Of a DNA stretch of 64,000 bases, positions 1-3,000 are shown piece by piece. This DNA comes from Escherichia coli. Its GTDB lineage: Bacteria; Pseudomonadota; Gammaproteobacteria; Enterobacterales; Enterobacteriaceae. The first letter of the stretch is position 1, and every line of letters starts with the position of its first letter. The position numbers are program-made. The DNA lies in NCBI RefSeq assembly GCF_003334405.1, contig NZ_QOWM01000009.1; one strand, written 5' to 3'.

Positions 1-3000
1 GATTCTGGTTTATACCGTCAATAAACCCCAGCGCGCAGCAGAGTTGCTGCGCTGGGGTGTGGATTGCATCTGTACCGATGCGATTGACGTGATTGGTCCG
101 AACTTTACGGCCCAATAGTTTTCAACGGAATGTCAGGCTGCGGCGTGCTGGGCTGATTCAGCATGTCGCCGTTTCTCCTCTCCGGCAGCATATGCTGCTG
201 ATTCAACGAACTATCCGGATTACGGTTGCTGTTTAACATCCCGCCGTTGGTGTTGGGCAGCATTTGCTGCCGGGCGGGATTTCGCTCCCCCGGCTGTGAC
301 TGCAACACCCGCTGAGAATTATTGTTTATCTGGTTTTCTAAATGCTGCTGTTGCAACTGAGTTTGCGTTTTCAGTTGCTGATTCAGCATCCCTTTTTGCT
401 GGATTTGCTGAGTCTGCATCTGGGTTTGCATCCGCTGCTGGCTGGGTATCTGATACCCCGGCTGGTTAGGGTTGTTCAGAGTATTAATGGGCTGTGCAAA
501 GCCGACAAACGGCAGGAGTGCCGTAAGAATCAGAAGTCGTTTCATCGCGTATCCTCCTCTGAAGATATCCTTTAAGTTTACTCGCTTCCCGACAAAACGA
601 TGATTAATTCAGAGTTATATACCAGGCTTAGCTGGGGTTGCCCCTTAATCTCTGGAGAATAACGATGATAAAACCGACGTTTTTACGCCGGGTGGCCATT
701 GCTGCTCTGCTCTCAGGAAGTTGTTTTAGCGCCGCCGCCGCGCCTCCTGCGCCGCCCGTCTCGTATGGTGTGGAGGAAGATGTCTTCCACCCGGTACGCG
801 CGAAACAGGGAATGGTAGCGTCTGTGGACGCCACTGCCACTCAGGTGGGGGTGGATATTCTCAAGGAGGGCGGGAATGCCGTTGATGCCGCCGTGGCGGT
901 GGGCTACGCGCTGGCGGTAACGCATCCGCAGGCAGGGAATCTGGGCGGTGGTGGTTTTATGTTAATCCGCTCGAAAAATGGCAATACCACGGCTATCGAT
1001 TTCCGCGAAATGGCACCCGCCAAAGCGACCCGCGATATGTTCCTCGATGATCAGGGCAACCCGGACAGCAAAAAATCACTCACTTCGCATCTGGCTTCCG
1101 GCACACCGGGTACGGTAGCAGGTTTCTCGCTGGCGCTGGATAAATACGGCACCATGCCGCTGAACAAAGTCGTGCAGCCCGCGTTTAAACTGGCACGCGA
1201 TGGTTTTATCGTTAACGACGCGCTGGCTGACGATCTCAAAACCTACGGTAGCGAAGTGTTGCCGAATCACGAAAACAGTAAAGCTATCTTCTGGAAAGAG
1301 GGCGAGCCGCTGAAAAAGGGCGACACGCTGGTGCAGGCGAACCTGGCAAAGAGCCTGGAGATGATTGCTGAAAACGGCCCGGACGAATTCTATAAAGGCA
1401 CGATTGCGGAACAGATCGCCCAGGAGATGCAGAAAAACGGTGGCTTGATCACTAAAGAAGATTTAGCAGCCTATAAAGCGGTCGAACGCACTCCGATAAG
1501 CGGCGATTATCGCGGGTATCAGGTTTACTCCATGCCACCGCCATCCTCCGGCGGGATCCATATCGTACAAATCCTCAATATTCTGGAAAACTTCGATATG
1601 AAGAAATACGGCTTTGGCAGCGCCGATGCGATGCAAATCATGGCAGAAGCGGAGAAATACGCCTACGCCGACCGCTCGGAATATCTTGGCGACCCGGATT
1701 TTGTCAAAGTACCGTGGCAGGCGCTGACCAATAAAGCCTATGCCAAATCTATTGCCGATCAAATTGATATCAATAAAGCGAAGCCATCCAGCGAAATTCG
1801 CCCCGGCAAGCTTGCGCCTTATGAGAGTAATCAAACTACCCATTACTCAGTGGTGGATAAAGATGGTAACGCGGTGGCGGTGACCTATACGCTGAACACC
1901 ACCTTCGGTACGGGCATTGTCGCGGGCGAGAGCGGTATTCTGCTTAATAACCAGATGGATGATTTCTCCGCCAAACCGGGCGTACCGAACGTTTACGGGC
2001 TGGTGGGCGGTGATGCCAACGCCGTCGGGCCGAACAAACGCCCGCTGTCGTCGATGTCGCCGACCATTGTGGTGAAAGACGGTAAAACCTGGCTGGTTAC
2101 CGGTAGCCCAGGCGGTAGCCGGATCATCACTACAGTGCTGCAAATGGTGGTGAATAGCATCGATTATGGCTTGAACGTCGCCGAAGCGACCAATGCGCCG
2201 CGTTTCCACCATCAGTGGTTGCCGGACGAGCTGCGTGTCGAAAAAGGGTTTAGCCCGGATACGCTCAAGCTGCTGGAAGCAAAAGGTCAGAAAGTGGCGC
2301 TGAAAGAGGCGATGGGCAGTACACAAAGCATTATGGTTGGGCCGGACGGTGAGTTGTACGGCGCATCCGACCCGCGCTCGGTGGATGATTTAACGGCGGG
2401 GTACTAAGGTTAGCGGCCCTCTTCGTGGGAAGAGGGCTATTTTGTCAGGGCAAGCCGAAGGTAGCCTTTTTTATTTCGTAATCCTGTAGATATTCTTCCA
2501 GCGGTTTTGCCGTTCCCAGAGAATGAATTTCACCACTGTCTTTATCAATAATAAAAGGTGCGTTACCAGCTAAGCGCGCAGCCTCATCTCCAGTTTCGAG
2601 AAATTCTCGTGCTTCGAAACAGAAATACCAGCCCTGGCTAAAGCGTCCATGTAGAGTAATGACGACCGGGAGATCTGCATCATCAAGGTAATGGTTCGCT
2701 TTCGCGAATGCGTCGTGATAAGTAATCATAATTATAATAAATATTATTGTTGAGTGTTATATTATTATTCCTGTGTGATACATTGAGCAAAGACGCGTTC
2801 ATCTTCGTCAAAGATATTATTAAATGCTGGTTTTGAAAAAAGTTCATCGGATAAGATATAGTCACGAAATAAGTATCTGCTAATATTTTATGATTTCTTT
2901 TTCAGAACGTCGAACGGGATTTTCTTATTTAAGATATCAGAATCTTATGATTCGGGTAAAATTCTAAATAAATCAACATGTCATTAAAATCATCATAGCC

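Follow-up and report, generated by a model that had tools for sequence, protein, structure and literature searches.

Convergent overlaps at ugpQ/yhhA and glpR/rtcR of Escherichia coli, with terminator-like hairpins or Rho-dependent termination inside the partner gene

Two convergent gene pairs of Escherichia coli, ugpQ/yhhA and glpR/rtcR, have coding bases in common at their 3′ ends, which raises the question of how transcription is stopped at such junctions and whether the partners are coupled through them. We analyzed both pairs in a 64,000-nucleotide stretch of contig NZ_QOWM01000009.1 (the window), for which an earlier note had claimed that the overlaps make the mRNAs complementary at their 3′ ends and leave "no room for independent terminators". 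We consider it likely that these are two ordinary spacer-free convergent junctions at which the overlap is incidental, with ugpQ and yhhA carrying embedded terminators and glpR being stopped by Rho inside rtcR.

The window opens within ugpQ, whose last 38 codons and stop lie at 2–118 on the plus strand as judged by translation and RefSeq (the gene start is upstream of the window); reading the frame places its TAG stop at 116–118. On the minus strand, yhhA (105–545; ORF and RefSeq) encodes a Gln-rich DUF2756 protein of 146 amino acids with a signal peptide, and the ORF ends in TAA at 105–107; the Salmonella YhhA orthologue is a Pfam DUF2756 match. These two genes have 14 coding nucleotides in common on both strands (105–118), where UgpQ ends in ...TAQ and YhhA in ...TIGP. 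Similarly, the intact glpR (26106–26864, plus strand, 252 amino acids; ORF and RefSeq) and rtcR (26846–28444, minus strand, 532 amino acids; ORF, RefSeq and homologues) have 19 coding nucleotides in common on both strands (26846–26864), with GlpR ending in ...LELC and RtcR in ...DQHSSS. Overlaps of 14 and 19 bp had been claimed, and the ORF coordinates and RefSeq agree on both. All four gene ends are identical in the RefSeq annotation of an MG1655 genome, and both partners of each pair are genuine genes with full-length homologues and a kept gene order in many genera. Each is thus a convergent overlapping gene pair, having stop-codon ends with common bases on opposite strands. Window positions 1–3000, near-identical to K-12 strains, were matched in each of the 5,426 complete E. 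coli genomes.

The frequency of overlap in the window is not unusual and not above expectation. Its annotation contains 12 convergent junctions, two of which overlap while the remaining ten have gaps of 28–268 bp, and in the survey of Huvet and Stumpf (2014) E. coli has 75 pairs that overlap convergently (PMC4161906). According to Kingsford et al. (2007), as relayed in PMC3887535, the length distribution of convergent overlaps is explained if genes extend randomly at the 3′ end as far as the following stop codon. The phenomenon is already well described under the headings of convergent overlapping genes, overlapping 3′ UTRs or "excludons", and overlapping bidirectional termination. One further convergent pair in the window, bioH/rpnA, has a gap of only 28 bp (roughly 41,600–41,700; 11801–11830 of the compared locus), and the published excludons include it as rpnA-bioH (PMC12288877).

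Using YhhA as the query and one genome per species, we collected 80 Enterobacteriaceae loci, in 79 of which yhhA converges on ugpQ. An overlap is present in 70 of these 79 species, with a length of 4, 9, 11, 14, 17, 20 or 23 nt. The commonest state is a 4-nt overlap of interlocking stop codons (30 species), followed by the 14-nt overlap of Escherichia, Dryocola, Cedecea and some Buttiauxella (14 species) and by overlaps of 17 nt (12), 20 nt (9) and 11 nt (3); overlaps of 9 and 23 nt were each found in one species. The other nine species have a spacer of 7–96 bp. Outside this set, Salmonella has a 4-nt overlap and Klebsiella and Raoultella have gaps of 23 and 18 bp, respectively; a search for ugpQ loci lacking a convergent yhhA found yhhA in all three of these genera. 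The C-termini encoded at the junction vary by genus, both in UgpQ (...GPNFTAQ, ...GPDFQP, ...GPDFSSAD) and in YhhA (...PLKTIGP, ...NGDMLNR, ...MLNPQN). In the spacers of 45–96 bp, found in Buttiauxella and Cedecea (near 2950–3045 of the loci), the ugpQ strand has a U-tract behind a REP-like hairpin, GGTGGATGA...TTATCCACC. This element resembles a conventional intergenic terminator that replaces the embedded one.

The glpR/rtcR overlap also occurs in four other genera, where it spans 19–38 nt: 38 nt in Salmonella, 35 nt in Intestinirhabdus, and 19 nt in both an Enterobacter sp. and Phytobacter. All genera compared have the same GlpR C-terminus, IQLELC, and the RtcR tail is read from the antisense of the bases encoding it. 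Enterobacterial RtcR tails are 3–8 residues longer than betaproteobacterial RtcR, which stops shortly past a conserved LxW motif. RtcR itself is patchy within the Enterobacteriaceae and its next closest relatives (∼75% identity) are betaproteobacterial, for example in Chitinibacter and Ralstonia; this distribution suggests horizontal transfer. Additionally, at three enterobacterial loci rtcR and rtcB are separated by a Ro60/TROVE gene, which is absent in E. coli and in the Salmonella locus examined. A paper on E. coli RtcR (PMC9650030) makes no mention of glpR.

These comparisons fit the preferred reading, in which the overlapped bases would encode dispensable C-terminal tails whose length drifts as stop codons move, and the overlap would have arisen neutrally as genes extended at the 3′ end into a directly abutting neighbour. 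Non-conserved tails and drifting stops are what neutral extension at a spacer-free junction predicts. As an alternative reading of its persistence in 70 of 79 species, the tight ugpQ/yhhA junction could be selected.

In the preferred reading, transcription would run past the junction in both pairs, and at ugpQ/yhhA each gene would be stopped by a hairpin and U-rich tract within the coding sequence of the other (18–58 and 140–179). The candidate intrinsic terminator of yhhA lies on the minus strand at 18–58, inside ugpQ codons 215–229 and 47 nt beyond the yhhA stop. It consists of a hairpin at 25–58 (CCCCAGCGCAGCAACUCUGCUGCGCGCUGGGG, with a closing A-U pair) and the tract UUUAUUGA at 18–25. The bulged stem contains 14 pairs, and the 110-nt context of the hairpin has a fold z-score of −4.97. 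Compared with synonymous recodings that keep the peptide and the local codon usage, the hairpin is considerably more stable (−25.0 versus −12.2 ± 3.9 kcal/mol, p ∼0.008).

Codon choice in ugpQ is consistent with maintenance of this structure. Among 76 distinct sequences, pairing in the outer stem is 95%. Pro218, whose third base pairs with a G of Trp227, uses the codon CCC in 74 of 79 species as against 11.5% CCC at the other ugpQ prolines, with one further Pro position also favouring CCC. Similarly, Arg226 is CGC in 73 of 79 species and pairs with the wobble base of Gln219 (G-C in 63, G·U in 9 and A-U in 2), and at the unpaired wobble base of Arg220 all four bases occur. G·U pairs occupy 12 cells of the stem when it is read on the yhhA-sense strand versus about one on the opposite strand. 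Thus, the free wobble positions appear to behave as if paired. Six of the eight core pairs (Pro218–Arg220 with Arg226–Gly228) are dictated by the conserved peptide PQR...RWG, which is why covariation in the stem is thin. The U-tract occurs only with Lys at UgpQ position 217 (34 of 79 species) and is lost in the Citrobacter freundii group. A stronger version of this account, which we hold as a tentative minority view, is that the hairpin in ugpQ codons 218–228 is kept by synonymous-site selection throughout the Enterobacteriaceae as a dedicated embedded terminator or pause element that would allow spacer-free packing and a fixed yhhA-ugp duplex of ∼155 nt. If true, this duplex would couple yhhA to the phosphate-starvation ugp operon.

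A second candidate intrinsic terminator, that of ugpQ, lies inside yhhA codons at 140–179 on the plus strand, 22 nt beyond the ugpQ stop, and consists of a hairpin at 140–169 with a stem of 12–13 pairs followed by CGUUUCUCCU. This hairpin too is more stable than synonymous recodings (−21.6 versus −13.7 ± 3.3 kcal/mol, p ∼0.0125). Its conservation extends from Escherichia to the Citrobacter freundii group but not to Enterobacter or Lelliottia. Read on the opposite strand, the U/C tract that follows the hairpin corresponds to AGG-AGA, two consecutive rare Arg codons of yhhA (174–179, minus strand). Each AGR codon makes up ∼4% of the Arg codons in the genes of the window, so that two adjacent ones would be expected by chance with a probability of ∼0.0015. 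Both the yhhA and the ugpQ signals have the makeup of an intrinsic terminator, a G+C-rich hairpin followed directly by a U-tract, and both tracts are short, with U at 5 of 8 positions. Within yhhA, Adams et al. mapped a Rho-independent Term-seq 3′ end at ORF nucleotide 52 (NC_000913.3 3586994, window 494). This end (494–523, minus strand) falls in the signal-peptide codons just past a small hairpin, CGGCACUCCUGCCG, and UUUGU, and could be a site of premature termination or of processing.

Should both ugpQ/yhhA elements be functional, the two mRNAs would be complementary over ∼155–160 nt rather than 14. We infer that the hairpins do terminate transcription. At their predicted positions no Term-seq 3′ ends were found in PMC7815308 for cells in LB or M63 (NC_000913.3 35872xx–35874xx), an absence that may reflect weak expression in the media used, and the TERMITe supplements name neither yhhA nor ugpQ. 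Generic promoter and terminator scans gave no enrichment over shuffles. At the level of transcripts, yhhA-ugpQ is one of 165 convergent excludons of MG1655 (Table 1 of PMC12288877), a listing that indicates overlap in at least 50% of 58 RNA-seq samples; 146 of the 165 pairs have terminators inside the transcription unit of the partner (PMC12288877).

Termination at the second junction takes a different form. A 10-bp hairpin spans the glpR stop codon (26852–26877, plus strand), lacks a U-tract and is not conserved in other genera, and no hairpin with a U-tract was found at the glpR/rtcR junction. In the preferred reading, the glpEGR transcript has no intrinsic terminator and is stopped by Rho ∼330 nt inside antisense rtcR. 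Supplementary file 2 of PMC7815308 reports a Rho-dependent termination region on the minus strand at NC_000913.3 3559514, in the category antisense to rtcR, with a Rho score of 8.9 (p = 2.7e-27); downstream reads at this region rise from 29 to 256 with the Rho inhibitor bicyclomycin (BCM). By our own mapping its centre falls at about window 27197 on the plus strand, 3′ of glpR and 333 nt past its stop, a coarse position given that the score was computed on 800-nt windows (PMC7815308).

The complementary mRNA 3′ ends that had been predicted are supported by the published yhhA-ugpQ excludon (PMC12288877) and by glpR-strand transcription ∼333 nt into antisense rtcR (PMC7815308). In contrast, the supposed lack of room for independent terminators is not supported at either pair: at ugpQ/yhhA, the coding sequence of each partner contains a terminator-like hairpin with a U-rich tail for the other, and at glpR/rtcR the published bicyclomycin data show glpR being stopped by Rho inside rtcR.

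The same observations could be taken to mean that each pair is a functional convergent excludon, in which complementary 3′ ends form double-stranded RNA that is cleaved by RNase III and/or the converging polymerases interfere, and expression of either gene reduces that of its partner as a result. Such coupling would tie ugp, of the Pho regulon, to yhhA and the glp repressor to the rtc activator. The published excludome entry for yhhA-ugpQ and the glpR-strand read-through described above are both expected under such a model, as is the persistence of the ugpQ/yhhA overlap across species, and mscL-arfA provides a precedent that 3′ complementarity can regulate (PMC10070815). However, glpR-rtcR is absent from the excludon list of PMC12288877, and PMC7815308 contains a great many cases of antisense read-through terminated by Rho, with many entries of its Rho table likewise antisense to a convergent neighbour. 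Among the matches listed in the supplements of a p19-based capture of double-stranded RNA (PMC7373196), none is named yhhA or rtcR, one lies mid-gene in glpR, and none falls at either junction. Moreover, neither the length nor the sequence of the overlaps is conserved. We also know of no functional link between the partners of either pair, which we count against the model. Regulation of this kind is therefore unlikely in our view, and any coupling between the partners is probably weak or incidental.

A further model is the collision-driven overlapping bidirectional terminator of Ju, Wang and Liu, in which a common hairpin pauses the polymerases and head-on and rear-end collisions set both 3′ ends, as reported for hundreds of E. 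coli convergent genes. The palindrome inside ugpQ is stable on both strands (−25.0 and −27.9 kcal/mol) and a hairpin does cross the glpR stop codon, yet the two ugpQ/yhhA hairpins lie ∼110 nt apart, each with a U-rich tail on one strand only, and the G·U pairs of the ugpQ-internal stem favour one strand. At the other junction the hairpin is not conserved, and the mechanism is Rho-independent whereas glpR termination is Rho-dependent (PMC7815308). Additionally, lower efficiency was reported for weakly expressed pairs, and all four genes here are probably weakly expressed. We regard a collision mechanism as quite improbable at these loci. That one partner of each pair ends earlier or is no gene, an annotation artefact suggested by the lack of sequence conservation in the overlapped tails, is next to negligible as an explanation, since a known frame fixes the stop, homologues support each of the four frames from end to end, the RefSeq ends agree, and several genera have PLKTIGP as the YhhA tail.

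Two ordinary spacer-free junctions, our preferred reading, place both pairs among systems that have been described. Like the convergent overlapping pairs of Huvet and Stumpf and of Kingsford, they lie on opposite strands, have 3′ ends in common, overlap over short stretches within non-conserved tails and shift in overlap length between relatives by stop-codon movement, with no essential difference other than that ugpQ/yhhA is unusually persistent (70 of 79 species, in many genera). Among the convergent excludons of ExcludonFinder (Sanmartin et al. 2025; a concept of Lasa and Toledo-Arana), yhhA-ugpQ is itself a published member. As in most of the listed excludons, the candidate terminator of each gene lies inside the transcription unit of the other, although for yhhA-ugpQ the candidates are within coding sequence and not in a 3′ UTR. 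In E. coli mscL-arfA, the mscL 3′ UTR and the 3′ coding sequence of arfA are complementary, a convergent arrangement with a 3′ end antisense to the partner as found here; regulation was shown experimentally for that pair, whereas at ugpQ/yhhA and glpR/rtcR it would be putative. The glpR strand, stopped within the antisense of its convergent neighbour, resembles many table entries for Rho termination of antisense read-through (Adams et al. 2021), in line with the role of Rho in suppressing antisense RNA.

Coding overlap of convergent genes would thus leave terminators moved into the coding sequence of the neighbour or left to Rho, not removed, and the antisense overlap of the mRNAs would be 10–20 times longer than the common coding bases. 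The comparative evidence points to one addition to the known picture, namely that terminator-like hairpins appear to be maintained inside the coding sequence of a convergent partner. Opposite-strand terminators may in this way set codon choice, as with CCC at ugpQ Pro218 and AGG-AGA in yhhA, and such a constraint would be relevant when ugpQ or yhhA is recoded or deleted. Otherwise, the arrangement is already catalogued and matters little beyond housekeeping.

Lastly, an Rfam scan of the window gave no match at either junction; its only match was the RyhB small RNA at 5724–5788 on the plus strand (83 bits). The window is E. coli K-12-like and distinct from the MG1655 reference itself. It differs from the MG1655 record by scattered single-base differences, eight of them in the last 33 kb, and a 777-bp IS1 beside yrhA in MG1655 (3908–4605 of the compared MG1655 stretch) is absent here, at about window position 3300.
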